64,000 bases of DNA, taken from the NCBI GenBank assembly GCA_047456305.1, contig CP179888.1, forward strand, positions 253,307-317,306, written 5' to 3'. The translations under genes were made by a program, and so were the position numbers. Each line of letters opens with the position of its first letter. The first letter of the stretch is position 1. The DNA comes from Candidatus Nealsonbacteria bacterium (GTDB taxonomy: Bacteria > Patescibacteriota > Minisyncoccia > Minisyncoccales > CAZKCU01). Of the stretch, positions 16,229-58,659 are shown one piece after another. A model generated the notes under the pieces. The model was not told the origin of the DNA, did not search any database, and was given only the letters and a program-made list of their open reading frames with translations.

Positions 16229-17332
16229 ATGTCAAATCTTAAAAAAAACGTTTTTGCTCTAATTTTCATCACTTCTTTTGTTTTATTTTTGGGAAGTTCT
16301 CTTTTTATTCAAGCAGCCGAAGAAGAAAGACCACTTGAAATCGAATATCCAGAAATTGGTGAATGGCGGCCAGAAACAGTAGAACAAGCTGTTCTTCCAG
16401 AATACATAAAATATATCTTTAATTTCGCCGTCGCAATTGCCGGCTTAGTTGCTTTTGGGGCCTTAGTTTATGGTGGGTTTCGTTATATAACCTCAGTTGG
16501 CGCGCCAATTGTCCAGACAGAGGCTAAAGACCAAATTTTTGCCGGCATTATAGGGCTTGTTATTTTACTTTCTTCTTATTTAATCTTAACTACTGTTAAT
16601 CCCCAATTAGTAATCTTGACTTTGGAAAAACCTGAATGGCCAGAACTTCCAACTGATTTGCCAGGAGTTTACCTTACTTACCTTATTGACGGAGAGGATG
16701 TAGTAAAATCTTATACTCAAAATGCATCTTCTTTGGATATGCCTAGTGATAGAATGACAGACGTCAAAATAGTCAATCCAATTGATTATGACTATGAAAC
16801 AGAAGAGAAAAAACCGGGAAAATACTACTATGGGGCAATCCTTTTCCCACAGACCGTCTATATAGGAGAACCGCCTGAAATTTGTCGTAGTATAATCCCT
16901 GGGGAAGTGGTAGAAGAGTGGACTTGTCGAATTTCTAAAAAAGCTGCTTCACTGGTTGTCTTTCGAGAAGTTGAAAAAACTGATGGCGAAGTCACACTTT
17001 GTACAGGGACAGAAGGGACAGGAGATTATTGTCACACCTGGGGTTTCACCCGGGATGGGGCGACGGACAACGAGTGGAAGGGATTAGAAAAGCTATCCAA
17101 AAAGGTTTGGTCAATTAAGATTGAAGGAAATTATTTGTTAATTCTTAAGGGTGTGGTCGAAGGTGCGTGGTATACTCGTGATACGGTATACCTCGCACGC
17201 TTTCAAGGCCCGGGTGAATGGCCGGACCTCACAAAATATACAATAAATCAATGTGGTCATCGGTCCTGGAATTTTTGGCATTACTACCAGGACTCTTGTG
17301 CCACCGAGTATATGATTATCCCAACGTATTAA
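16229..17332 (+). CDS. T4SS-pilin-like N-domain protein with a Cys-containing C-terminal beta-rich domain
   Basis: Start moved to ATG 16229 (MSNLKKN...). The N-domain YIKYIFNFAVAIAGLVAFGALVYGGFRYITSVGAP...GIIGLVILLSSYLILTTVNPQL is paralogous to the N-domain of 13755..15314. Confidence 0.75.
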   Translation: MSNLKKNVFALIFITSFVLFLGSSLFIQAAEEERPLEIEYPEIGEWRPETVEQAVLPEYIKYIFNFAVAIAGLVAFGALVYGGFRYITSVGAPIVQTEAKDQIFAGIIGLVILLSSYLILTTVNPQLVILTLEKPEWPELPTDLPGVYLTYLIDGEDVVKSYTQNASSLDMPSDRMTDVKIVNPIDYDYETEEKKPGKYYYGAILFPQTVYIGEPPEICRSIIPGEVVEEWTCRISKKAASLVVFREVEKTDGEVTLCTGTEGTGDYCHTWGFTRDGATDNEWKGLEKLSKKVWSIKIEGNYLLILKGVVEGAWYTRDTVYLARFQGPGEWPDLTKYTINQCGHRSWNFWHYYQDSCATEYMIIPTY

Positions 17333-17358
17333 AAGGCCACGTTCTTTTTGTCATTTAA

Positions 17359-17392
17359 TAAAAAACTACTCTATTTATTCGGGTAGTTTTTT
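17359..17392. terminator. AT-rich hairpin between convergent genes (possible bidirectional terminator)
   Basis: aaaactac-N13-gtagtttttt lies between the pilin-like gene (+) and jag (-). Confidence 0.35.
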
Positions 17393-17425
17393 AAACTAAC
17401 TTTTTATAGAAGTTAAAACTTAAAA

Positions 17426-17887
17426 TTAGGGATATGGTCTCACTACCACTCTTCTTTCTGGTTCTTGACCTATGCTTTCTGTCGTAACATTAGTTCTTGC
17501 CGCTAACTCCAAATGAATAATCCTTCTTTCATAGGCTGGCATTGAAGGAAGCTGTTTTTCTTTTTTTGACAGGGCTACCTCGTCAGCAGCAGCTCTTGCC
17601 ATTTCTTTTAAATAGTCAATTTTTTTCTTTTTATAATCTGAAATATCAAGGTCAATAAAAAAAGGTTCTTCAATTTGTCTTTTTAATATTGCCTTTAAAA
17701 GATGCTGGATTTCAGTTAGGGTCTGACCTCTTTCTCCGATTAAAATCTGAGGCTCTGAAGTCTTTATATTTATGGGAATGGTTTGGTCTTTCTGGGGCAA
17801 AATTTTAATTTCTACTTCAAAAGTCATCTTTTTAAAAAACTCTTCAACAGTTTCTTTAATTTTTTTAAGGCTATTTTGATTAAGCAT
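17426..17887 (-). CDS. jag: Jag/KhpB-type RNA-binding protein (KH + R3H)
   Basis: KH-like ILIGERGQTLTEIQHLLK and R3H-like ERRIIHLELA...TESIGQEPERRVVV. Located downstream of yidC. Confidence 0.85.
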   Translation of the reverse strand: MLNQNSLKKIKETVEEFFKKMTFEVEIKILPQKDQTIPINIKTSEPQILIGERGQTLTEIQHLLKAILKRQIEEPFFIDLDISDYKKKKIDYLKEMARAAADEVALSKKEKQLPSMPAYERRIIHLELAARTNVTTESIGQEPERRVVVRPYP

Positions 17888-19631: not shown

Positions 19632-19703
19632 TGCCCTCGGTAGGAATCGAACCTACATCTGAAGCTCCGGAGGCCTCTGTTTTATCCATTAAACTACGAA
19701 GGC
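19632..19703 (-). tRNA. tRNA-Arg (anticodon CCG)
   Basis: Hand-folded 72-nt cloverleaf. Acceptor GCCTTCG/CGAGGGC, D stem GTTT/AAAC, anticodon stem GAGGC/GCTTC with loop CTCCGGA, T arm GTAGG-TTCGATT-CCTAC, discriminator A. CCA is not encoded. Confidence 0.9.
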
Positions 19704-47115: not shown

Positions 47116-49047
47116 ATGCCAAAAAGAAGATTTTATCGAAAAATTTATCAGAAGGACAAAAAAGGAAAAAGAAGAAGTAGATCTCTTTTAATTTTAAAAT
47201 TCTTTGGATATTTTCTTTTATTTTTTGTTTTTATTTCTTTATTTTTATTTGTTTACTATGCCAAAGACCTTCCCCGACCAGAAAGATTTACCGAAAAGCC
47301 ATTTATCCAATCAACTAAAATTTACGACAAGACAGGGGAAATTCTTCTCTATGATATTTATGGTGAAGAAAAAAGAGATGTTATTTCTTTGGACCAAGTT
47401 CCAGAATATTTAAAGGAGGCTGTGATTGTGGCTGAAGATATTAATTTTTATCACCATTTTGGATTAGACATTAAGGGAATAATCCGAGCCGTCCTATCTA
47501 ATTTAAGAGTGGGTAAAGCAATTTATGGAGGATCAACTATCAGTCAGCAACTCATCCGTTCTTCTTTCTTAACTAGAGAAAAAACTTTAAAAAGAAAGGT
47601 GAGAGAGATTATTTTAACTCTTGAGTTAGAAAGAAGATATTCTAAAGATGAAATTTTAGAATTTTATTTGAATCAGGTCCCTTTTGGTTCTAATACCTAT
47701 GGAGTAGAAGCTGCTTGCCAGACTTATTTTAACAAACCTATCTCTGAAATCTCTTTGCCAGAAGCTGCTATTTTAGTTTCTTTAATCAGGTCCCCGAGTT
47801 ATCTTTCTCCTTACGGAGAACACAAAGATAAGCTCCTATCTAGAAAAGATTATATCTTAGACAGAATGTTAAAAGAAGGATATTTAACTCAAGAAGAAAG
47901 AGATAAAACCAAAGAATCTGAAATAACCTTTGCCAAAATTTTACAGCCAATCCGAGCTCCTCATTTTGTAATGTATGTTATGGAATACCTTAAACAAAGG
48001 TACGGAGAAGATTTTTTAAAAGAAAAAGGGCTTAGAGTTTATACCTCTTTAGATTGGGAACTCCAGGAATGGGCTGAAAAAGTAATTAAAGAAGGGGGAG
48101 AGATTAATAAAAATTACCGAGCTCATAACGCCAGCTTAGTGGCTATTGACCCAAAAACCGGTCAAATTTTGGCTATGGTGGGGTCAATAGATTATTTCGG
48201 AGACCTTTTCCCTGAGGATTGTTTAGCAGGAGAAAATTGTTTATTTGAACCTTATCCTAATGTTACAATTCGAGGACGCCAGCCAGGCTCTGCTTTTAAA
48301 CCTTTTGTCTATGCTACCGCTTTTAAAAAGGGTTATGATGATAAAGTTGTCGTGATCGACGAAGAAACTAATTTCGGCACCCCGGCCTACCCTTATATCC
48401 CCAGAAATTATGATGGACTTTTCCGGGGTCAGGTCTCTTTGAGACAGGCTTTGGCTCAATCTTTGAATGTCCCTTCAATAAAAGTCCTGGCCAATTTTGC
48501 CGGTTTACAAGATAGCATCCAGACTGCTAAGGATTTAGGTATTACTACCTTAACTAAGCCTCCTTCTTTTTACGGTCTCCCTTTGGTCCTGGGCGGCGGA
48601 GAGGTAACTTTATTAGAAATGGTTTCAGCTTATGGAACTTTTGCTGCCAAAGGCTGGCATGTTCCCCCAGTCTCTATTTTAAAAATCGAGGATTCTACTG
48701 GAAATATTATTGAGGAAAATAAAAAAACTCCAAAAATGGTCTTGGAGCCGGAAGTTGCTTCCCTTATTAATGACATTTTATCAGACAATGAAGCCAGAGC
48801 TCCTATGTTTGGAAGCCGTCCTTTGCTTTATTTTGAAAGCTACCAGGTGGCGGCAAAAACTGGAACGACCCAAAACTATAAAGATGGCTGGGTAATTGGT
48901 TATACTCCTTCAATAGCGGCTGGGGTTTGGGTTGGAAACAACAATAACTCTTCGATGTCAAAACAACCAGGGATAGTTTTAGCCGGTCCTATCTGGAGAA
49001 GATTTATGGAGAAAGTTCTTTTATTAAGAGGAACTGAGAACTTCTGA
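47116..49047 (+). CDS. Class A penicillin-binding protein (transglycosylase + transpeptidase)
   Basis: N-terminal TM; GT51 motifs EDINFYHHFG, GGSTISQQL, RKVRE; transpeptidase motifs SAFKP, SLN, KTGTT. Confidence 0.92.
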   Translation: MPKRRFYRKIYQKDKKGKRRSRSLLILKFFGYFLLFFVFISLFLFVYYAKDLPRPERFTEKPFIQSTKIYDKTGEILLYDIYGEEKRDVISLDQVPEYLKEAVIVAEDINFYHHFGLDIKGIIRAVLSNLRVGKAIYGGSTISQQLIRSSFLTREKTLKRKVREIILTLELERRYSKDEILEFYLNQVPFGSNTYGVEAACQTYFNKPISEISLPEAAILVSLIRSPSYLSPYGEHKDKLLSRKDYILDRMLKEGYLTQEERDKTKESEITFAKILQPIRAPHFVMYVMEYLKQRYGEDFLKEKGLRVYTSLDWELQEWAEKVIKEGGEINKNYRAHNASLVAIDPKTGQILAMVGSIDYFGDLFPEDCLAGENCLFEPYPNVTIRGRQPGSAFKPFVYATAFKKGYDDKVVVIDEETNFGTPAYPYIPRNYDGLFRGQVSLRQALAQSLNVPSIKVLANFAGLQDSIQTAKDLGITTLTKPPSFYGLPLVLGGGEVTLLEMVSAYGTFAAKGWHVPPVSILKIEDSTGNIIEENKKTPKMVLEPEVASLINDILSDNEARAPMFGSRPLLYFESYQVAAKTGTTQNYKDGWVIGYTPSIAAGVWVGNNNNSSMSKQPGIVLAGPIWRRFMEKVLLLRGTENF

Positions 49048-49066
49048 AGTAATACCTAAAAAAATG

Positions 49067-50197
49067 CTATGTCCCTTTAATTGGCATTGCAACATAGATA
49101 TAACTTTCATCCCCTACTGGTTTTAAAACTCCAGGGCCTACCTCGCCATTTAGCTCAAAAATCACCTCTGAACTTTTTATATTCAAGAGCCCGCTATTTA
49201 AAAATCTATAATTAAAAGAAATTTCTTCCTCTTTCCCTTTTGTTTTCCCTGAGAGTAAAGAATGGTATTCTCCAGTTTCGGGATTCTGGCTGGAAATCTC
49301 TACTATTTCTTTTTTAGGGTCAATTTTAAATTTGACCTCATTTATTTTCCCGCTAAAAAGACTGGCCGCTTTAATCTGATTTAAAAATTCCTGCTTATCT
49401 AAAATAACCTGAGTTTCATATTTTTTAGGAATAATTTCTTGATAGTTTGGGTATTCTCCTTCGATTAATTTTGAAGTAAGATGAATTTCTGGATGGGGGG
49501 TTTCGGACATTGTAGACTCAAATAAAATTTGGTTAGGGTTAACCAGGATTTTAATCTCTCCTTGTTTTTCTCCAAAAATATTAATTATTTCTTTTGCTGT
49601 TTTTTGGGGCAGAATCAGGGAGATTTCCTTTTCAATTGTAAGTGGTTTTTTTAAAAACAGAGTTTTTTCACCTAATCTAAAACTATCAGTAGCTGCCATT
49701 TTTATTAAGTCTTTTTGGATAAGGAAATGGATGCCTGAAATTTCAGGCTTTACTGTAGAAGGAAGAGCAATGTCTACAATTTGATTTAAGGCCTGACAAA
49801 AAGAATAACTGTCAAGAGAAAATGAGATGCCTTCTGATATTTCAGGAATAATCGGAAAATCTTCTGAGCTTTGTCCTTTTATTTTGGTTTTATAACCCTC
49901 ACATTCAACAGATAGAATTTGATTATGGGCTGTTAATTCAACCGGTTTTTCAGGTAAGAGACTTATAAAAGTTGACAAAATAGAACTTGGAACAGTAACC
50001 TCACCTTCTTTTTCTATTTTAGAAAGAACCCACCATTTAATTCCTATTTCTAAGTCTGTCGCTGCTAATAATAAAAAGTTTTTTTCAGCTTTTAAAAGAA
50101 GATTTCTAAGAATAGGTAAAGTAAAAGATTTAGAGGAAACTCTTTCAATGATGTTAAGTCCTTGTTTTAATTTATTTTGTAATATTATTAATTTCAT
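49067..50197 (-). CDS. dnaN: DNA polymerase III beta sliding clamp
   Basis: 376 aa with three-domain length. LPILRNLLLKA, MAATDSFRL. Sits directly downstream of dnaA. Confidence 0.9.
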   Translation of the reverse strand: MKLIILQNKLKQGLNIIERVSSKSFTLPILRNLLLKAEKNFLLLAATDLEIGIKWWVLSKIEKEGEVTVPSSILSTFISLLPEKPVELTAHNQILSVECEGYKTKIKGQSSEDFPIIPEISEGISFSLDSYSFCQALNQIVDIALPSTVKPEISGIHFLIQKDLIKMAATDSFRLGEKTLFLKKPLTIEKEISLILPQKTAKEIINIFGEKQGEIKILVNPNQILFESTMSETPHPEIHLTSKLIEGEYPNYQEIIPKKYETQVILDKQEFLNQIKAASLFSGKINEVKFKIDPKKEIVEISSQNPETGEYHSLLSGKTKGKEEEISFNYRFLNSGLLNIKSSEVIFELNGEVGPGVLKPVGDESYIYVAMPIKGT

Positions 50198-50255
50198 TAT
50201 AGTTATAGGTAATGGGTAAAACTATTTTTTTAAATAGATTAGTCAAAAGAAAACT

Positions 50256-50342
50256 AGTGGAAAACGAGCAAAGAAGTAGTTAATTAATTAGGGATAATAA
50301 AAAGAAGAAAAGAAAAAGAAATTTTTAAAGAGATTTTCCACT
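50256..50342. promoter_or_regulatory. Inverted pair of DnaA-box-like 9-mers TTTTCCACT in the dnaA-dnaN spacer
   Basis: agtggaaaa at 50256..50264 and ttttccact at 50334..50342, plus tttttcaca at 50357..50365. The spacer is AT-rich. Confidence 0.4.
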
Positions 50343-50402
50343 TTTAATACCATGCCTTTTTCACAAATTGACCAAGGAAATTTTTAGCAAAAGGGTAAAA
50401 AC

Positions 50403-51752
50403 TCAGATGCTAAAAACAAGTTGCCTGATTAACTCAATTTCTTCCTTTAAATTTTCGTTTGTTTCAAGTTCTTTTAAAATTTTCTTGTAGGAATGAATAG
50501 CTGTGGTATGGTCTTTTCCCCCTATTTTCCTTCCTATAAAAGGGTAGGAACTTTTTAAGTCTTCCCTTAATAAATACATCGCAATCTGGCGAGGTCTGAC
50601 GATTTCTCTTTTACGTGAGGAATCTAAAAGGTTATTTTCTTTAAGGTCGTAAAACTTAGCTACCGCCCTGATTATTTTTTTCGGTGTGGCTATTTTAGTT
50701 GGAGAAAAGAGTAATTTTTTAAGCAAAGATTTAGCTTCTTCGGGCTCTAAGGATTGGTTATTTAACTTTTGATAAGCGACTAATCTGTTCAAAGCTCCTT
50801 CAAGTTCCCTAATATTTCTTTGGATGTTTGATGCGATATAGACAAGAGTTTCTTCGGGAGGGCTAATTTTTTTTTCTTGGGCCTTTGTTTTAAGAATAGC
50901 CATTCTTGTTTCGAAATCAGGATAACCAATATCAGCTATCATTCCTCCCTCAAACCTAGACCTTAGTCTCTCCGTGAGTGCAGGGATAGCCTTTGGGGGC
51001 CGGTCAGAGGAAAGAACTATTTGTTTATTTCTTTCGTAAAGGGTATTAAAAGTATGGAAAAACTCTTCTTGGGTTTTTTCTTTCCCAGCCAGAAATTGAA
51101 CATCATCAATAATAAGGACATCTATCGCCCGGTATTTCGTTTTAAAACTTTCCATAGTATGATTTTTAATTGCCGTTACCACCCCAGAGGTGAATTTTTC
51201 AGAAGGAATATATTTTAATTTTTTTTCTGGAAAATTTTTAGTTATCTCATTACCGATTGCCTGCAGTAAATGGGTTTTGCCGAGACCCACCCCTCCATAA
51301 ACAAATAAAGGATTGTAGATAAGGCCAGGATCTTTTGAGGATGCCCAGGCAGCGGCCTGTGGTAGTTCATTAAAAGGGCCGACTACAAAATTTTCAAAAG
51401 TATAGCGGGGGTTAAGATTAGTATCTTTGTCAATTTTTAATTCTTGAAACTCAAGCTGGTCCGATTCTGGGTAAGAGAAAGAGGGTTTTTTAAAAACTTT
51501 TAATCCCTGTCGGACAACAGTATATTTAATCTCTTTAATTTCTTCGTCCAAACTATGCAAGAGTTTAAAAATAATTTTGTTGTATTTATTTTCAAGCCAC
51601 TCTTTGGCAAAAGAATTGGGAACAGAAACTATAACCTGGCCTTCTTTCTGAGAAAGAATCCCGGTATTTTTAAACCATGTACTAAAATTAGCCTGGGAAA
51701 TATTTAATTGGATTTGGGCCAAAACCGTCTGCCACAATTCCTCCTTGGTCAT
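50403..51752 (-). CDS. dnaA: Chromosomal replication initiator DnaA
   Basis: Walker A GGVGLGKTHL, IDDVQFL, sensor motifs, C-terminal DNA-binding KDHTTAIHSYKKI. A GGGGA SD lies 7 nt upstream. Confidence 0.95.
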   Translation of the reverse strand: MTKEELWQTVLAQIQLNISQANFSTWFKNTGILSQKEGQVIVSVPNSFAKEWLENKYNKIIFKLLHSLDEEIKEIKYTVVRQGLKVFKKPSFSYPESDQLEFQELKIDKDTNLNPRYTFENFVVGPFNELPQAAAWASSKDPGLIYNPLFVYGGVGLGKTHLLQAIGNEITKNFPEKKLKYIPSEKFTSGVVTAIKNHTMESFKTKYRAIDVLIIDDVQFLAGKEKTQEEFFHTFNTLYERNKQIVLSSDRPPKAIPALTERLRSRFEGGMIADIGYPDFETRMAILKTKAQEKKISPPEETLVYIASNIQRNIRELEGALNRLVAYQKLNNQSLEPEEAKSLLKKLLFSPTKIATPKKIIRAVAKFYDLKENNLLDSSRKREIVRPRQIAMYLLREDLKSSYPFIGRKIGGKDHTTAIHSYKKILKELETNENLKEEIELIRQLVFSI

Positions 51753-52060
51753 AAGTGTTCCCCTAAAATTAAAAGATAAAATATTTTTGCGTTTTTAATT
51801 ACGCCTTAATTTTTTGGTTTTTCTTTCTTAATAAATTATACCACAAAGTCAATCGGATAGTAAAATAAACATCAAATTCAGAAAGATGTTAATAAACTGG
51901 GGAGAACTTGTGGGTTATAAAAAACTTAATAGTCGGTTAATATTCTAATCCAAATTAATAGAAAATTTCTGAAAAGAATCAACGGGAAAGAAATATATTG
52001 CCAACACTTTCCTTAAACTCAAACAGGTTGACAGATATTTTTAGGAGGTTAATAATAAAA

Positions 52061-52218
52061 GTGAGGGGGTGCGAGGGAATCTCCTCTAAGGACACGGTTT
52101 TAATGGAGGAGGTTTGAGGTACGTGCCTGGTTACGTCCGACACCAGTGAGTCTCTGATAAACTGATATCATTAAGGCCGCTCCCCCTCACTAAAGAAGAG
52201 GTGCTTCACCTCTTTTTT
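52061..52218 (+). ncRNA. Candidate structured RNA or riboswitch-like leader with an intrinsic terminator (family not identified)
   Basis: GC-rich island. The closing stem gtgaggggg(t)gcg / cgc(t)ccccctcac encloses ~105 nt with internal helices (cuccuc/gaggag, cugg/ccag, gaua/uauc). It is followed by aagaggtg-ctt-cacctcttTTTT at 52196..52218, 30 nt before ATG 52248. Confidence 0.45.
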
Positions 52219-52247
52219 AGTTTTTAAAGATGTGTTAAACTAAAAAT

Positions 52248-52820
52248 ATGAGATACAAAATTGCTGTTTCTGGAGCAGCCCAGATTGGCCATTGCTGTAA
52301 GGGGATTAAGGAGTTGTCTAAAAAAATTGGGCGAGAAATTTTTCGCCAAAATTGTGTCCTGGTTACTGGAGCTACAACCGGTGTCCCCTATTTTGCTGCC
52401 TTAGGATGTAAGGAGGTGGGAGGATTCAGTATTGGTTTTTCACCAGCAACCTCTGAAGCCGCCCACTTAAAAAGATATAAACTTCCAGTGGATGCTTTTG
52501 ATGTAATGGTTTATACCGGCGCTGATTATGTGGGGAGAAATGTAATTATGACAAAGGCAGTAGATGGAGTGATTATTATCTGCGGGAGAATGGGGACCTT
52601 GCATGAATTCGCCACTGCTTTTGAAATTCAAAAACCAATTGCGGTTTTAGAAGAAACAGGGGGAACGGCTGATAAAATTAAGAAGATTGCCACTGGTCCT
52701 TATCGAGGGGTTAAAAAAATTATTTATGAAAAAAATCCCAAAGAATTGGTAAAAAAATTAATTGAATTAATTAAAAAAGAGAAAAAAGAAAATTCTAAAC
52801 TAAAAGGTCGACTCAAATAG
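52248..52820 (+). CDS. TIGR00725/LOG-like Rossmann-fold nucleotide-binding protein
   Basis: IAVSGAA...LVTGATTGVPYFAALG...GVIIICGRMGTLHEF pattern. Confidence 0.6.
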   Translation: MRYKIAVSGAAQIGHCCKGIKELSKKIGREIFRQNCVLVTGATTGVPYFAALGCKEVGGFSIGFSPATSEAAHLKRYKLPVDAFDVMVYTGADYVGRNVIMTKAVDGVIIICGRMGTLHEFATAFEIQKPIAVLEETGGTADKIKKIATGPYRGVKKIIYEKNPKELVKKLIELIKKEKKENSKLKGRLK

Positions 52821-52840
52821 AAAATAAGTTTTTAAAAATT

Positions 52841-53116
52841 ATGCCAAATGAAGAACCTCAAGTTCCCGAGGAAGGAAAATTAGTGGGGGAAATTACTCAC
52901 TATTTCGGGAATATAGGGGTGGCGGTTATTAAGCTTTCTGATACCTTAAAAGCAGGAGATAGTATTAGAATTGTTGGAGGGGACACTGATTTTACTCAGG
53001 CTGTAGAATCTATGGAAATCGAGCACAAAAAAATTGAAACAGCTAAGGCTGGAGATTCTGCTGGTTTAAAAGTTGAGCAAAAAGTAAGAGAGGGATATAA
53101 GGTATACAAAGTGTAA
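52841..53116 (+). CDS. Small EF-Tu-domain-2-like beta-barrel protein
   Basis: GEITHYFGNIGVAVIKLSDTLKAGDSIRIVG...IETAKAGDSAGLKV. Confidence 0.55.
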   Translation: MPNEEPQVPEEGKLVGEITHYFGNIGVAVIKLSDTLKAGDSIRIVGGDTDFTQAVESMEIEHKKIETAKAGDSAGLKVEQKVREGYKVYKV

Positions 53117-53142
53117 AGGCAACACCAATATACTAATTAGGC

Positions 53143-53209
53143 ACTAATTTACGAATTTTAGCAATTCGTATAATTAGTACATTCCTGTGAAATTCGTATT
53201 TGATTAGTG
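53143..53209. promoter_or_regulatory. Operator-like inverted repeat plus a third half-site upstream of mgtC
   Basis: actaatttacgaatt-ttagc-aattcgtataattagt, followed by aattcgtatttgattagt. Confidence 0.4.
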
Positions 53210-53218
53210 CAGCATCTT

Positions 53219-53671
53219 ATGGAGTTTTTAGTTAACTCTCAAATTAGAATTATTTTACAATTATTACTGGCTGCTTTTTTGGGCGGACTAATCGGCCTAG
53301 AAAGAGAATATAAGAGAAAAGAAGCCGGACTTCAAACTTATAGTTTGGTAGCTTTGGGGACTTGTCTTTTTACTGTGATTACTTTTGAATTATTTAATTT
53401 TTTTATCAACAAAGAAGGTATTAGTTTTGACCCTTCCAGAATAATTCAGGCCATAGCTGTTGGAATTGGTTTTATTGGAGCCGGGGTGATTTTCCGCCAG
53501 CCATCAGGGGTTGTAGGTTTAACTACTGCTGCCGGTTTATGGACAACTGCGGCTATTGGAATTGCTATAGGAGTTAAGCTTTATTTTTTAGCTATTTTTG
53601 CTACTTTTTTAGCTCTTCTGGTATTGGCCGGCTTTGGAATATTGGAAGAGAAAATTTTTAAGAAGTCTTGA
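53219..53671 (+). CDS. mgtC: MgtC/SapB-family membrane protein
   Basis: LLAAFLGGLIGLEREYKRKEAGLQTYSLVALG...GAGVIF...GLTTAAGLWTTAAIGIAIG. The alternative GTG start is at 53207. Confidence 0.88.
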   Translation: MEFLVNSQIRIILQLLLAAFLGGLIGLEREYKRKEAGLQTYSLVALGTCLFTVITFELFNFFINKEGISFDPSRIIQAIAVGIGFIGAGVIFRQPSGVVGLTTAAGLWTTAAIGIAIGVKLYFLAIFATFLALLVLAGFGILEEKIFKKS

Positions 53672-53720
53672 CCGCTTAAGCGATAGCGCAGAGCAAAAGA
53701 AGAGATTTATCTCTTCGCCC
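53672..53720. repeat. GC-rich hairpin element with a GAAGAGAT-tt-ATCTCTTC core
   Basis: cgcttaagcg...gaagagatttatctcttcgccc lies directly after the mgtC stop. Confidence 0.8.
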
Positions 53721-53801
53721 ACTGAAGGAGAGATGATAAAATAACTAAAAGAAAAAAGGAACCGTTCGTTCAGCTCACTGTAATTTACTTCGCAAATTAA
53801 A

Positions 53802-54140
53802 ATGAAACCTCAAAAAATTATCGGCTGGCTCTTATTATTCACCGGCCTAATAATAATATTTTACAGCATTTTTGCTTCTTATAATATTTTTACTGGAAAA
53901 GCTCTGGAGCCAACAGTTTTTAAGACGTCAGAAAAAGAAGCAGTTTTGCCTCAAAAAGGTAAAGTTCAGACCCAAGAGGCTCAAATGCAAGAAATGATTG
54001 GGGGGCAATTGAAAGAAATGCTGCCGGTTGATTTTATACCAAAACTTTTAAATCTGCTTGCTTGGTCAATAATGGCGGGAATTATGATTTTCGCTGGCAC
54101 CCAGATATCAAGTCTGGGCATTAAATTAATAAAAAGGTAA
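53802..54140 (+). CDS. Small two-TM membrane protein
   Basis: 112 aa with hydrophobic N- and C-terminal helices. Confidence 0.5.
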   Translation: MKPQKIIGWLLLFTGLIIIFYSIFASYNIFTGKALEPTVFKTSEKEAVLPQKGKVQTQEAQMQEMIGGQLKEMLPVDFIPKLLNLLAWSIMAGIMIFAGTQISSLGIKLIKR

Positions 54141-54221
54141 TTACTCTTTCAATTTTTTCCGGCACAGTTTTTAGCTGCGCTTTTTTGGTTTTCAAAATAA
54201 ATGTGATATAAAAAAGAGAAT

Positions 54222-56720
54222 ATGCAATTCTTCGCTGATTTTCATCTACATTCAAAATATTCAAGAGCGACCTCTCCTCAGATGGATTTGGAAAATCTTG
54301 ATAAGTGGGCAAAAATTAAAGGAATAAAAGTTTTAGGGACTACTGATTTTACCCATCCTATTTGGTTTAAAGAGTTAAAGGAGAAATTAGAACCTGCTGA
54401 GCCAGGTTTATTTAAATTAAAAAATTCAGATTCAGAAACCCGTTTTATTTTAACTACAGAAATTAGCTGCATTTATTCAAAAAAAGGAAGGGTTCGAAAG
54501 ATTCATATTATAGTTTTTGCTCCTGATTTTAAAACAGTTGAAAAAATTAATACCCATTTGGGCTGGATTGGGAATCTAAAATCAGATGGCCGGCCAATTT
54601 TAGGATTAGATGCCAAAGAATTAGCAAAAATTGTTTTAAATGTTTCCGATAGTTGTTTAGTAGTACCTGCTCACTGTTTATTGCCTAATACTTATCTTCA
54701 TAGTAATCTAGGGATCAAAATGATAAAAGATATATCTGTAGGTGATCGTGTTTACACGCATGAAGGGCGATTTAAGAAAGTAGAAAAAGTTTATACAAGA
54801 GCTTATAAAGGGCAAATTTATAACATAAAACCTTACTATTTTAGGATAGGGTTGAAAACTACTTCTGAACATCCTTTTTATATAATTAAGACTCATTGGT
54901 GCCCTAATATGGGGCATACTATTTGCAAGAAGAGTTGTGCCTTTATTGATCACAGTAGTTGTTCTTATAAGTATTTTGAAAATTATCAACCTAAATGGAT
55001 ACAAGCGAAAAATATTAGAAAAGGAGATGTTCTGATTTTTCCTCGCTTTAATAAAATTATTAAGAATATAAAGGAGATAAAACTTAATAGATATTTAAAG
55101 CGAAGCGAATATCAATTAGAAAGAAATTTTATAAAAGCTGCTAGTGGTACCAGAGCGAACTTTATACCCAATACAATAAAAATAACTAAGGGGTTTTGCA
55201 GATTAGTTGGTTATTATTTGTCCGAAGGATATACAGATTATAGAGATTCTGTTTCTTTCTGTTTTAATGAGAAAGAAAAAGATTATATTGAGGATGTAAA
55301 AAATTTGATGGCGAAGATATTTCATCTTTCCTATTGTCGGAAATACAAAAGAAAAAGTAGCAAAAGTACAGAATTAATATTTTTCTCAAAACCTCTCGCT
55401 CAGATTTTTGGTAGATTATTCTATGATGATTCTATTTTAAGAAGAGCCCATACGAAGTGTTTACCCCATTGGATGTTGAATTTACCGCTAGACAAACAGG
55501 TAGAAATTTTAAAAAGTTGGTGGTGGGGAGATACGGGATGTACTTCTTCAAGGATGTTGATGAATCAAATGAAAATAATTTGTCTTAGACTAGGAATAAT
55601 TCCTTCTATTAATCAACAATCTAAAGAAGATTTTAATGAGAAATATGCTCATAAGCATAAAATAGAAGATAGGACTATTTGGGCACAACACGATCATTTT
55701 CATTTCTACGGACTCTCATTTTTCCAAGATTTATTTGGGTTATTGGAAACTTCTGAATTTAAAAAATTTAATACTAAACTTCATCGAAGACATGGATGGA
55801 TTGATGAGGATTATGTTTATATGCCGATTCGCGATATTGAAATCACAAATTATAAAGGAAAGGTTTATAATTTAGAAGTAGAGAAAGATAATTCTTATGT
55901 TAGTGAATTTGCAACAGTTCATAATTGTTGGACTCCATGGTTTGCTTTGTTTGGTTCAAAATCAGGGTTTGATTCAATTGAAGAATGTTTTGAAGATTAT
56001 TCAAAATATATTTTTGCCGGCGAAACTGGGTTATCTGCGAACCCGAAAATGTTTTGGCGGATGCCTGATGGTCGAAAACTTAGTTTAATCTCAAACAGTG
56101 ATTCACACAGTCCGGCCAAGTTGGGCAGAGAAGCAAATGTTTTTGACACGGAATTGAGTTATAATGCGATAATAGAAGCCATTAAACAAAAAGACCCTCA
56201 AAAATTTTTATACACCATTGAATTTTTTCCCGAAGAGGGCAAATATCATTTTGACGGCCACAGGAATTGCAATATAAGTTTAAGTCCGGCTGAAACCAAA
56301 AAATACAATGGAATTTGTCCTCGCTGTGGAAGACCCTTAACTGTTGGAGTTCTAAATCGAGTTGAACAATTAGCCGACCGGCCCGAGGGATTTAAGCCTC
56401 AAGGTGCCATACCTTTTAAAAGTTTGATTCCTTTGGCAGAAATAATTGCTGAAGTTTTAGGTGTTGGGGTTGGCACAAAAGAAGTAGAAAAACAATACAA
56501 GGACCTGATTGAAAAATTCGGTTCAGAATTTAATGTTTTGCTTAACGTTTCTGTTTCTGATTTGAGAGCAGCAACTTTGCCCGAAATTGCCGAAGCCATT
56601 TCAAGAGTCCGCGAGGGAAAAGTGAGTGTTGAGCCAGGCTACGATGGAGTTTATGGGAAAATCAGGATTTTTTCGAAAGGTGAGAAAAAAGACTTATCTC
56701 GCCAAGGAACCTTGTTTTAA
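54222..56720 (+). CDS. EndoQ-like PHP-domain nuclease (TIGR00375-type) interrupted by an intein
   Basis: N-extein FADFHLHSKYSRATS...GTTDFTHPIWF...VVPAH. C-extein CWTPWFALFGSKSGFDSIEE...SNSDSHSP...CPRCGRPLTVGVLNRV. The exteins total about 415 aa. Confidence 0.85.
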   Translation: MQFFADFHLHSKYSRATSPQMDLENLDKWAKIKGIKVLGTTDFTHPIWFKELKEKLEPAEPGLFKLKNSDSETRFILTTEISCIYSKKGRVRKIHIIVFAPDFKTVEKINTHLGWIGNLKSDGRPILGLDAKELAKIVLNVSDSCLVVPAHCLLPNTYLHSNLGIKMIKDISVGDRVYTHEGRFKKVEKVYTRAYKGQIYNIKPYYFRIGLKTTSEHPFYIIKTHWCPNMGHTICKKSCAFIDHSSCSYKYFENYQPKWIQAKNIRKGDVLIFPRFNKIIKNIKEIKLNRYLKRSEYQLERNFIKAASGTRANFIPNTIKITKGFCRLVGYYLSEGYTDYRDSVSFCFNEKEKDYIEDVKNLMAKIFHLSYCRKYKRKSSKSTELIFFSKPLAQIFGRLFYDDSILRRAHTKCLPHWMLNLPLDKQVEILKSWWWGDTGCTSSRMLMNQMKIICLRLGIIPSINQQSKEDFNEKYAHKHKIEDRTIWAQHDHFHFYGLSFFQDLFGLLETSEFKKFNTKLHRRHGWIDEDYVYMPIRDIEITNYKGKVYNLEVEKDNSYVSEFATVHNCWTPWFALFGSKSGFDSIEECFEDYSKYIFAGETGLSANPKMFWRMPDGRKLSLISNSDSHSPAKLGREANVFDTELSYNAIIEAIKQKDPQKFLYTIEFFPEEGKYHFDGHRNCNISLSPAETKKYNGICPRCGRPLTVGVLNRVEQLADRPEGFKPQGAIPFKSLIPLAEIIAEVLGVGVGTKEVEKQYKDLIEKFGSEFNVLLNVSVSDLRAATLPEIAEAISRVREGKVSVEPGYDGVYGKIRIFSKGEKKDLSRQGTLF
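54675..55925 (+). mobile_element. Intein (417 aa) with a LAGLIDADG homing-endonuclease domain
   Basis: Starts at Cys (CLLPNTYL...GDRVYT), block B TTSEHPF, LAGLIDADG motifs LVGYYLSEGY and ILKSWWWGDTG, terminal KVYNLEVEKDNSYVSEFATVHN followed by +1 Cys. 1251 nt, in frame. Confidence 0.85.
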
Positions 56721-56723
56721 AAT

Positions 56724-57086
56724 ATGATCGAAAATTATAAATTTGGTTCAATTACAATCGATGGAAAAACCTATAACCATGATGTTGAAGTTCGCTGGAC
56801 AGATGAAGTTTTAAAATGGTGGAGAAAAGAATCCCATCTGATTGACGCTGAAGACGTAAAAAGAGCAGTTGAACAAAACCCTGACACAATTATTATTGGG
56901 ACTGGAGAATCGGGAATAGCTAGAGTCACCGAAGATACCCAGAGGTTTATTACCAAGGAAAATATCAAACTGATTATTGATAAAACCGGAGAGGCAGTAA
57001 AAACTTTCAACATAATCAAAAGAGAATCGGAGAGAGAAGAAAGGAGACAAAGAAAGGTGATAGGGTTGTTTCACTTGACTTGTTAA
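56724..57086 (+). CDS. Mth938-domain (DUF498) protein
   Basis: YKFGSITIDGKTYNHDVEV...THLIDAEDV...PDTIIIGTGESG...IKLIIDKTGEAVKTFN. Confidence 0.7.
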   Translation: MIENYKFGSITIDGKTYNHDVEVRWTDEVLKWWRKESHLIDAEDVKRAVEQNPDTIIIGTGESGIARVTEDTQRFITKENIKLIIDKTGEAVKTFNIIKRESEREERRQRKVIGLFHLTC

Positions 57087-57266
57087 TTGAATCGTGTATG
57101 ATAGAGTTAGACCGATAAGTCGAGTATCTTAAGTTAAGTCTTGTTAATACTCCAAAATTAGTTTCCAATTTTGGAGGCCACCATTAGCGAAGGCCAAAAT
57201 TAAGCATAGCGACCGAGGGTCTAAAAGGTCGTTTTTTATTAATCTAAATTTAATCTATTAGAATTT

Positions 57267-57473
57267 ATGGCCTTCAAAAAATTCGATGAAACGCCCCGTG
57301 AAGGGGGTTTCCAGCGTCAGATGTTCGATGTTTCTAAAATGAATATTAAATGTCGTGATTGTGGGACAGAAATAACTCAGCTACCTTTTAACCCAGACCC
57401 TGAGAGATTAGATTCTATTCGCTGTCAAGATTGTATGCGTAAATTCCGAGAGCAGAGACCAAGAAGATTTTAG
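57267..57473 (+). CDS. Small zinc-ribbon protein (CxxC-x20-CxxC)
   Basis: IKCRDCGTEITQLPFNPDPERLDSIRCQDCMRKF, basic tail, followed by a terminator. Confidence 0.6.
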   Translation: MAFKKFDETPREGGFQRQMFDVSKMNIKCRDCGTEITQLPFNPDPERLDSIRCQDCMRKFREQRPRRF

Positions 57474-57491
57474 TTTTATTCTTCAGCTAAC

Positions 57492-57518
57492 AAAAAACCC
57501 GCTCTTGGCGGGTTTTTT
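57492..57518. terminator. Rho-independent (bidirectional) terminator
   Basis: aaaaaaCCCGC-tcttg-GCGGGtttttt lies between convergent genes. Confidence 0.8.
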
Positions 57519-57555
57519 GTTATAATGGATTTATTTCTCAGTCGCCTCTCTATTG

Positions 57556-58659
57556 TTAAAAATTTTTACCTAAAAAGGAAATTGAGCTTCCTTTGACCTT
57601 AAATTTTCCTTCAATGAATTTTTCAATTACCCAGATGTTAGTTTTACAATGATTGGTAATTTCTGAAACTGTAACTTGGTTTTTGCCAGGGGCTAAGGCC
57701 ATAAAAATTAAAATTTGATCTCCTAAATGTTTATCCAAACAGGCTCCAGATTTCTGTTCTTTTAATAATTCCAAAGCTGCTTCTTTGCCTACATCTTCTG
57801 CCCTCTTACCTAATTTTCCCAAATTATCGGTTCCAATTACTGTATTTTCAAATTCGACAATTAGGCAAATTTGACTGCCCGGGCATTGAGTTTGATAATA
57901 CTCAATTTTTTCTTCAATGGGTAATTTTAATTTTCCTAAAATCTCTCTTACCCCAGCAATTTGGCGCTCAGCCACTTTTTTATCTTTCAAGATATTTGAG
58001 GCTCCGGAGATTACTAAAATTTTTTTAAGTGAACCTCGCTCAGTAAGATTAAGATTTTTTAGTTTAGACGGAAAAACTCTTATCTCCACTTTTGCTCCAC
58101 CTTCTGGGTAATATCCTCGTTTTAAAACACTGATTTCAACTAGCGGAGAACGGTTCTCCGTCAAATTCATTTTTTCTAAAGTTGGTAAAAAGACATAGCG
58201 AAAATAATCAATAGTAGGCGAGAAAAAAGTATCAGTTGCTCCGCCAGTAAAAATAATTTTTAGAGGCTTGCCCTCCCAAATTTTGTTAGACAAAACTTGG
58301 GAGGGTGAAGGAGCAAATAAAGCCGGCAGAATCAAAGTTTGTAAAACTAAGGTTATGCTTCCAGCAGTAGGAATATTTACAGAGACCCGGTCTCTGTAAA
58401 TATCTCCAGGGTAAAACTTAATTTCTTCACTTTCTAATCTATCACCTTCTAACCGTCCATTACAGAACTGTGCCAAAGCTTGAATGCCTAAAAGATGTTG
58501 AATGGACAGGCCCGGTTTGGGCCTCGACTTGCGAATATTGAAAATTCGGCAGGGTTTTTGAGTTACTGCCGAAAGAGCGCAGGCACTTCGTAAAGTTTGA
58601 CCTCCGCCGGAGCCGTAGGAACCGTCAATTTCAATAAGATTTTGATTTGGCATAATCAA
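57556..58659 (-). CDS. rtcA: RNA 3'-terminal phosphate cyclase
   Basis: IDGSYGSGGGQTLRSACALS, RPKPGLSIQHL, GGATD, DKHLGDQIL. Carries an in-frame palindromic element. Confidence 0.9.
   Translation of the reverse strand: MIMPNQNLIEIDGSYGSGGGQTLRSACALSAVTQKPCRIFNIRKSRPKPGLSIQHLLGIQALAQFCNGRLEGDRLESEEIKFYPGDIYRDRVSVNIPTAGSITLVLQTLILPALFAPSPSQVLSNKIWEGKPLKIIFTGGATDTFFSPTIDYFRYVFLPTLEKMNLTENRSPLVEISVLKRGYYPEGGAKVEIRVFPSKLKNLNLTERGSLKKILVISGASNILKDKKVAERQIAGVREILGKLKLPIEEKIEYYQTQCPGSQICLIVEFENTVIGTDNLGKLGKRAEDVGKEAALELLKEQKSGACLDKHLGDQILIFMALAPGKNQVTVSEITNHCKTNIWVIEKFIEGKFKVKGSSISFLGKNF
58271..58305. repeat. 35-nt palindromic element inside the rtcA CDS
   Basis: ccctcccaaattttg-ttaga-caaaacttgggaggg. 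Family partner of 41996..42032. Confidence 0.85.

Follow-up and report, generated by a model that had tools for sequence, protein, structure and literature searches.

The gene at positions 54222 to 56720 of a 64,000-nucleotide stretch of Candidatus Nealsonbacteria DNA (contig CP179888.1; the whole stretch is referred to below as the window) encodes a protein related to Endonuclease Q (EndoQ), which is interrupted within an active-site motif by 417 additional amino acids (aa). This arrangement raises the question of what the insert is, whether it functions, and how it came to reside at this position. The data described here suggest, with a probability of about 0.88, that the insert is a class-1 LAGLIDADG intein, probably fully active, that it represents the Mja hyp1 intein allele in the candidate phyla radiation (CPR), that it is placed after the zinc-ligand histidine of an EndoQ homolog, and that the window records a homing event.

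The reading frame is unbroken over 832 codons, and the insert occupies exactly the position proposed in an earlier note on this DNA, which had described an 832-aa open reading frame (ORF) with a 417-aa in-frame insertion at 54675-55925 between VVPAH and CWTPWF. The flanking sequences are ...SDSCLVVPAH upstream and CWTPWFALFG... downstream, and the junction falls directly after His151. The intein hallmarks named in the same note, which were Cys1 (codon 54675-54677), the block B sequence TTSEH, two LAGLIDADG motifs, the terminal His-Asn, and the Cys at position +1, were all located at checked coordinates. The resulting features, with residue numbers counted within the intein unless stated otherwise, are as follows:

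54222..56720, + strand: precursor ORF, EndoQ-family nuclease with one intein, 832 aa plus stop, from the ORF list
54222..54674, + strand: N-extein, aa 1-151, from the alignment to the Pyrococcus enzyme PfuEndoQ
54675..55925, + strand: intein, 417 aa, precursor aa 152-568, from Pfam, NCBIfam, the AlphaFold2 model, and the empty-site allele
54861..54872, + strand: block B TxxH, T63-S-E-H66, with T63 and H66 invariant in 114 of 114 homologous inteins
55194..55235, + strand: LAGLIDADG motif 1, FCRLVGYYLSEGYT, with putative catalytic Glu184 in YYLSEG
55500..55541, + strand: LAGLIDADG motif 2, VEILKSWWWGDTGC, with putative catalytic Asp286 in WWWGDTG
55557-55574, + strand: LMNQMK with conserved Lys300, after motif 2
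55863..55925, + strand: blocks F/G, VYNLEVEKDNSYVSEFATVHN, ending with His416-Asn417, matched by intein_Cterm (TIGR01443) above its cut-off
55926..56717, + strand: C-extein, 264 aa, beginning with the +1 Cys (55926-55928), from the alignment to PfuEndoQ

The GC content is 29.9% in the intein, 32.5% in the N-extein, and 39.2% in the C-extein, compared to 35.5% in the whole window. A public protein (P0001), with precomputed Pfam matches to MJ0043_C, Intein_splicing, and LAGLIDADG_3, is 100% identical to the 832-aa precursor, and an independent Joint Genome Institute (JGI) contig encodes the identical protein in the same gene neighborhood. An antisense ORF of 98 aa within the intein coding region (54708-55004) was set aside as a product of chance in AT-rich sequence. 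The Rfam scan revealed nothing relevant near the EndoQ locus, and its sole match in the window was a tRNA at 19632-19703.

Profile searches and residue conservation were then used to determine the nature of the insert. The Pfam profile Intein_splicing (PF14890) matched it with 45.7 bits against a cut-off of 35.8, and LAGLIDADG_3 (PF14528) matched intein aa 177-239 with 30.9 bits against a cut-off of 22.5, while the NCBIfam model intein_Cterm (TIGR01443) also scored above its cut-off; hence, the match to Hint-domain profiles, which the earlier note had named as a check of its intein call, was obtained. Together with the intein-free ortholog of 415 aa described below, these scores place the intein call well above chance expectation. 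The best long NCBIfam matches of the insert were to the intein-bearing parts of models for the archaeal proteins Tes and PolII-DP2, and the only PDB match to the intein by sequence was PI-PkoII (2cw7). Among the 114 homologous inteins collected in this analysis, the splicing residues C1, T63, H66, H416, and N417 were kept without exception, and D405 in 112. Of the endonuclease residues, E184 and D286 were each kept in 113 of them and K300 in all 114. The C-terminal junction read HN/C (a slash denotes a splice junction or insertion point throughout) in each of the 114 matched homologs. These data show that the insert is a canonical class-1 Hint intein carrying a two-motif LAGLIDADG homing endonuclease, which is probably fully active in splicing and DNA cleavage, as judged from the conservation of these residues. 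The possibility that it is a bacterial intein-like or pretoxin-HINT domain, which was prompted by sub-threshold matches to PT-HINT and Hint_2, was rejected on the grounds of the +1 nucleophile, the high conservation of the site, and the existence of an exact empty-site allele.

The structure of the intein was modeled with AlphaFold2 using an 11-sequence alignment (A1). The model had a mean predicted local distance difference test (pLDDT) score of 83.9 and a predicted template modeling score of 0.86, with pLDDT values below 50 only at residues 75-96 and 368-370, and it predicts a Hint (horseshoe) fold. When the model was compared to the PDB using Foldseek, the top 16 matches were all intein-endonucleases, with the TliVMA intein (7qsu) as the best one (E 4e-18), and with PI-PkoII, PI-SceI, PhoVMA, and PI-PfuI among the further ones; lower matches included I-DmoI, which corresponds to the endonuclease domain, and mini-inteins, which correspond to the Hint domain. 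The modeled splicing and LAGLIDADG domains thus resemble in fold those of the solved archaeal and yeast intein-endonucleases (TliVMA/PhoVMA 7qsu, 7qss, and 7qst; PI-PkoII 2cw7; PI-SceI 1vde; PI-PfuI 1dq3), with Foldseek E-values from 4e-18 to 2e-9 and template modeling scores of 0.5-0.7, while the sequence identity to them is only 11-15%. The hosts also differ, because the solved inteins reside in the VMA ATPase, DNA polymerase, or ribonucleotide reductase, whereas this one resides in an EndoQ homolog. The comparison with the solved inteins does not extend to residues 76-96, which form a cysteine-rich loop, because the pLDDT there is below 50.

To identify the host, the exteins were joined into a 415-aa protein (151 + 264 aa), which aligned to PfuEndoQ contiguously (residues 5-401 vs 5-384 of 5zb8/7k30, E ~1e-57). 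The earlier note had called the host an EndoQ/TIGR00375-type PHP nuclease and had proposed a contiguous alignment to intein-free EndoQ as a way to test this; the alignment bears out the call, and, on sequence grounds, the host is a member of the EndoQ family. The NCBIfam model TIGR00375 spans the spliced protein (model positions 2-374 of 374), and NCBI gives a close homolog (P0174) the name 'endonuclease Q family protein'. The spliced extein has identical residues at all metal-ligand positions of PfuEndoQ, namely H8, H10, E76, H84, H139, and D193. The N-extein contains H8 and H10 (FHLHS), E80 (TTEIS), H95 (KIHII), and H151 (PAH), which directly precedes the intein, while the C-extein contains T154 of the lesion pocket, ETGLS, the Asp ligand in NSDSH, an HxxC...CxxC zinc site, and the C-terminal helical domain. 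The full-length alignment shows PHP ligands, lesion-pocket residues, and a zinc-finger region common to both proteins. An EndoQ would be expected to cleave 5′ of deaminated or abasic bases, and the CPR homolog may do so. In contrast to the window protein, PfuEndoQ has no intein and has Ala at position +1. The two proteins also differ in the zinc domain, which is H-R-N-C...C-P-R-C (HxxC...CxxC) here and C-S-R-C...C-P-K-C (CxxC...CxxC) in the Pfu enzyme. The use of His instead of Cys as the first zinc ligand (spliced extein aa 263-286, listed at window positions 57010-57011 to 57070) appears to be a feature of the bacterial clade to which the window protein belongs.

The insertion point follows directly the PAH histidine His151, which corresponds to the Zn ligand His139 of PfuEndoQ, in agreement with the earlier placement of the insert in a conserved PAH metal-binding segment. 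In PfuEndoQ, His139 coordinates the catalytic Zn2+ ion and the H139A substitution almost abolishes activity, while Thr142, located three residues further, lines the lesion-recognition pocket (PMC5961232). In the 832-aa precursor, the intein keeps His151 apart from Thr154 and from the remaining active-site residues, so that the PHP metal center would not be assembled and the precursor would be inactive. Splicing would begin with an N-S acyl shift at Cys1, assisted by Thr63 and His66 of block B, followed by the attack of the +1 Cys on the thioester (trans-thioesterification), and by the cyclization of Asn417, assisted by His416 and Asp405, and the S-N shift. The expected products are the 415-aa EndoQ and the free 417-aa intein. 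The latter would cut intein-less EndoQ alleles at the ...CCnGCnCAy/... junction using Glu184 and Asp286, and repair from an intein-bearing copy would import the intein along with a short part of the adjoining extein sequence.

The intein allele proved to be already present in the databases. A search with the Methanocaldococcus protein as the query, together with a cluster look-up, revealed the Swiss-Prot entry Q60348, named 'Uncharacterized protein MJ0043; Contains: Mja hyp1 intein', in which the intein comprises residues 129-520 (392 aa) in the context GPAH/CVPPDT...SGTLHN/CFTPW. This intein, which we take to be the one listed in InBase as 'Mja Hyp-1', resides in the same host family (TIGR00375/MJ0043_C/EndoQ), interrupts it at the same point (GPAH/C...HN/C-x-TPW), and has the same architecture, consisting of a Hint domain, a Cys-rich loop, and a two-motif LAGLIDADG endonuclease. 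The window intein is 39.5% identical to it (residues 1-417 vs 1-392, E 2e-88), and the identity of the exteins to those of MJ0043, 36% over the full length (E 2e-75), is slightly lower. The Pfam family MJ0043_C (PF27218) is precomputed on the window protein and on its orthologs. The remark in the earlier note that EndoQ is not among the commonly listed intein hosts has thus to be corrected, because MJ0043 carries a homologous intein at the identical site. The same allele is present in M. vulcanius, M. bathoardescens, and the EndoQ homolog of Thermococcus litoralis, where it is named 'Mja hyp1 intein' in NCBI and UniRef. The differences are that the host is a CPR (Patescibacteria) bacterium here and a hyperthermophilic archaeon in the case of Mja hyp1, that the intein is 417 instead of 392 aa long, that the +2 residue is Trp instead of Phe, and that the window intein, unlike Mja hyp1, has a sister genome with an empty site and a co-conversion tract, as described below. 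In the searchable literature, EndoQ and inteins were found together in only two papers, both with neither word in the title or abstract, and the search for the MJ0043 or Mja Hyp-1 intein gave nothing useful, so that prior knowledge of this allele rests on database records.

Two observations concern the annotation of such proteins. Intein residues 274-416 alone match positions 2-134 of TIGR00375 (33.8 bits, E 2e-8), and this model scores higher for the unspliced (221 bits) than for the spliced protein (185 bits); inteins in seed sequences such as MJ0043 may have contributed to this model. RefSeq WP_ records from Methanocaldococcus and T. litoralis named 'TIGR00375 family protein' are 424-461 or 550 aa long and exist beside GenBank versions of 785-819 aa (P0488-P0496, P0501, P0502), and it seems that current automatic annotation represents the intein-bearing gene by shortened fragments.

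The allele is also widely distributed. In the first search, in which the 8,000 best-matching candidates were scored and about 4,700 homologs were found among them at E <= 1e-5, full-length homologs of the window protein with an intein made up more than 120 clusters at 90% identity, and a homologous intein at the same site was present in more than 100 Patescibacteria protein clusters. Several of the homologs were already labeled 'Mja hyp1 intein', 'Hedgehog/intein hint domain protein', or 'LAGLIDADG family homing endonuclease' in NCBI. A scan of GTDB, with one genome per species and the intein alignment as the query, returned 78 loci, of which about 70 had the intein at the same PAH/C site of an EndoQ homolog. 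The bacterial hosts were Patescibacteria (Gribaldo-, Nealson-, Sacchari-, Shapiro-, Davies-, Woyke-, and Wildermuthbacteria) and Omnitrophota, and the archaeal hosts were DPANN (Altiarchaeum, Micr-, Woese-, Nano-, and Aenigmatarchaeota), metagenome-assembled genomes (MAGs) of Methanosarcinales and Nitrososphaerales, and cultured Methanocaldococcus. The occupation of this insertion site across two domains of life and the co-conversion tract around the window's own site, described below, may be indirect traces of the cleavage of intein-less alleles and of homing. Distant relatives of the intein, with 26-30% identity, were seen in other hosts in a Pacearchaeota MAG (L078) and in Omnitrophota (L079-L084). 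The N-terminal junction in L078, GCPYSCIFC/LHPDT, lies inside a radical-SAM-like CxxxCxxC motif, which agrees with the NCBIfam match to the intein-containing tetraether lipid synthase Tes.

Intein-free relatives were searched for with the spliced extein, a check that the earlier note had also proposed. The search revealed intein-free proteins of exactly 415 aa, the best of which (P0121) is 97% identical to the spliced extein and is encoded at the orthologous locus. The contigs that encode it (L001-L003) share the gene order of the window, which is dnaN and dnaA upstream, an LDcluster4 protein, a 91-aa protein, MgtC, a 112-aa protein, EndoQ, DUF498, a 68-aa protein, and RtcA. Contig L001 is 99.6% identical to the window over 47899-54673 and 98.8% over 55962-58262. 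When the intein is left out, both sequences are collinear over 9,113 nucleotides (nt) with no indel and with 74 differences, of which 47 fall within 169 nt around the insertion point, so that the density of differences is 27.8% there and 0.30% elsewhere (binomial p ~3e-62). The tract consists of two arms, defined by the comparison of the window with the intein-free L001:

54647..54674, + strand: co-conversion tract, upstream arm, 28 nt
55926..56066, + strand: co-conversion tract, downstream arm, 141 nt, including the +1/+2 codons

The changes in the tract are mostly synonymous, and the nonsynonymous ones include the +1/+2 codons, which are TGT TGG in the window and TTA CTA in L001, giving PAH-[intein]-CW-TPWF in the occupied and PAH-LL-TPWF in the empty allele. 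Cys is present at +1 in 100% of the 108 intein-bearing homologs and in 13% of the 119 intein-free ones, while 50% of the latter have Leu. The 169-nt tract is the signature expected of double-strand-break repair with co-conversion of the flanking extein, and it appears that this conversion brought the +1 Cys nucleophile needed by the intein, replacing Leu. The consensus of 60 occupied-site flanks is CCnGCnCAy/TGyTGGACnCCnTGGTTy, variable mainly at wobble positions. The healed, intein-free window junction reads ...GTACCTGCTCAC/TGTTGGACTCCATGGTTT..., while the natural empty site of L001 reads ...GTTCCCGCTCAT/TTACTAACCCCCTGGTTC....

Some differences between these genomes lie outside the tract. Of the 27 non-tract differences, 15 are clustered in about 400 nt at 50150-50544 (the start of dnaN, the dnaN-dnaA spacer, and the 3′ end of dnaA), which form a second small divergent patch between otherwise 99.7%-identical genomes. 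At 56411-56417 (codons 313-315) there are four differences in 7 nt (ATA CCT TTT vs ATT CCC TAC, changing Phe to Tyr). This site is located about 345 nt past the main tract, and conversion may have been discontinuous here. In the 91%-identical sister genomes L004-L006, a reverse-transcriptase gene (RVT_1, at 16405-17538), possibly part of a group II intron or a retron, is located a few kilobases downstream of EndoQ.

The intein contains one further conserved element, located between block B and the endonuclease domain:

54900..54962, + strand: Cys-rich loop, C76, C84, C88, and C96 (C-x7-C-x3-C-x7-C)

At least four cysteines are present in this loop in 93 of the 114 homologous inteins, with Cys-to-His swaps at positions 76 and 88, while in 12 of them the loop is swapped for a Cys-free version. 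The Cys-rich loop is also found in the Mja hyp1 intein. It may serve as a Zn-binding module (a zinc knuckle) or a redox module. Splicing that is conditional on a disulfide or on zinc has been documented in other inteins.

Parsimony, from which alone the direction of the event is inferred, favors a recent gain of the intein by homing in the window lineage. The nine closest extein relatives (P0121-P0129, from 97% down to ~80% identity) are all intein-free, with Leu or Ile at +1, and the nearest extein with an intein reaches no more than 80% identity. In the protein sequence, the outgroup P0122 shares five differing tract residues with L001 and one with the window. Several observations weigh against homing by an active intein into an EndoQ gene. 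Splicing and DNA cleavage are inferred only from conserved residues. The spliced extein, with 184.9 bits, scores under the TIGR00375 equivalog cut-off of 326.6, and is therefore to be placed in the family at the superfamily or subfamily level rather than among the equivalogs of the archaeal seed set. In the empty site of L001, 5 of the 6 nt that follow the junction on its 3′ side are different, which perhaps makes this site a poor substrate for the endonuclease. The polarity of the tract was analyzed with the outgroup L004, 58 intein-bearing GTDB loci, and 113 intein-bearing proteins, and gave no nucleotide-level direction: L004 shares 76.3% identity with either version of the tract, and the intein-bearing loci, when the +1/+2 codons are left out, agree with the window state as often as with the L001 state (0.32 vs 0.31). 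A donor of the intein and tract was not found among the 113 proteins, and the closest sampled intein is 72% identical. The polarity and donor results could also be explained by the reverse history, in which a long-held intein was precisely lost in an L001-type genome by gene conversion from a diverged intein-free allele, so that the imported tract would be that of L001. This reverse history also agrees with the fact that aa 142-198 form the most divergent segment of the gene among close relatives (68-82% vs 88-97% identity in the flanks), although active-site motifs are encoded there, which suggests repeated conversion around the insertion site, possibly in both directions. Loss in the L001 lineage is therefore a live alternative, although an unlikely one in view of the intein-free state and +1 residues of the nine relatives, the tract residues shared by P0122 with L001, and the distance to the nearest intein-bearing extein. 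The abrupt change from 0.3% to 28% divergence could in principle also be mimicked by a chimeric metagenome contig, in which an intein-bearing allele of another organism was joined to this one. Such an assembly artefact is hardly credible, because the divergent stretch is short (28 + 141 nt) and in frame, near-identity is regained on both sides within the gene, the independent JGI contig has the identical protein in the same neighborhood, and the pattern is the classic one of co-conversion.

Apart from its history, the present function of the intein could be read differently than as an active homing element. A decayed or splicing-dead Hint domain would leave the EndoQ gene effectively inactivated, as a pseudogene in the making. 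We found no specific support for this explanation beyond the window's motif 2 sequence WWWGD, which departs from the family consensus WWRGD, and it is highly improbable given the intact frame across 832 codons, the presence of C1, T63, H66, D405, H416, N417, and the +1 Cys, the intact EndoQ metal ligands, and the identical protein on the independent contig. Another possibility is that the intein was co-opted as a conditional switch, in which splicing, and hence EndoQ activation, would be set by the redox state or by metal through Cys1, the +1 Cys, and the Cys loop. The invariance of the two junction cysteines, the wide conservation of the C-x7-C-x3-C-x7-C loop including its occurrence in the Mja hyp1 intein, and the swaps to His, which are typical of metal ligands, are consistent with such a role. 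However, the loop is entirely missing from the 12 homologs, its structure was not confidently given by the AlphaFold2 model, and the presence or absence of the intein in near-identical genomes, together with the conserved endonuclease residues, fits a selfish mobile element better. We therefore regard the switch as doubtful. Its broadest form, in which an intein family extending from Methanocaldococcus to CPR bacteria would use a Cys4 metal/redox module to gate splicing and thereby a repair nuclease for deaminated bases, as a post-translational stress response, is a little more doubtful still; if it were true, the element would be a stress switch rather than a purely selfish passenger.

The PAH site is not the only one used by inteins in this family. 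In the EndoQ family, inteins are found in at least three places, each of which is a catalytic motif: behind PAH (site a), behind ETGLS (site b, GLS/C...GN/SDP; P0017, P0096, P0120, P0241, L056), and behind NSDSH (site c, DSH/C...HN/SP; P0015, P0050, P0381). Sites b and c lie in motifs that contribute to the lesion pocket or to metal binding in PfuEndoQ. They were read directly from the sequences, because mapping the extra inteins by BLAST high-scoring segment pairs was imprecise and scattered one site over positions 135-175. The window gene has an intein only at site a, while some homologs carry two inteins, and the proteins reach 1,340 aa. The occurrence of sites b and c beside a makes EndoQ a three-site intein hotspot, which in this respect resembles the haloarchaeal MCM helicase, a multi-site intein host with competing sites (PMC10643990). 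The C-extein matches 2,840 clusters at 50% identity, and this number does not agree with the view, expressed in the earlier note, that bacterial EndoQ homologs are uncommon. In most of the top 50%-identity matches of the C-extein, the EndoQ module forms the N-terminal part of a protein of 1,000-1,200 aa (P0242-P0388). In three long homologs with listed Pfam domains (P0483-P0485) the C-terminal remainder contains UvrD/PcrA helicase Pfam domains, and several 415-aa CPR proteins are mislabeled 'DNA helicase UvrD' in NCBI.

The intein allele, its host family, and the mechanism are already established, with the Mja hyp1 allele catalogued in archaea since the 1990s; hence, the window is a clear bacterial example and not a discovery. 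The present analysis adds the conservation of the four-cysteine loop in the intein and the documentation of a sharply bounded conversion tract. Endonuclease Q can now be given as the host of the long-known Mja hyp1 intein; this family is an intein hotspot with three catalytic-motif sites and is far more widespread among bacteria than is stated in the literature on EndoQ. The window and its sister contig are a natural pair with and without the intein, differing almost only by the intein and the 169-nt tract, and this pair provides a clean substrate set for homing and target specificity in uncultivated CPR bacteria.

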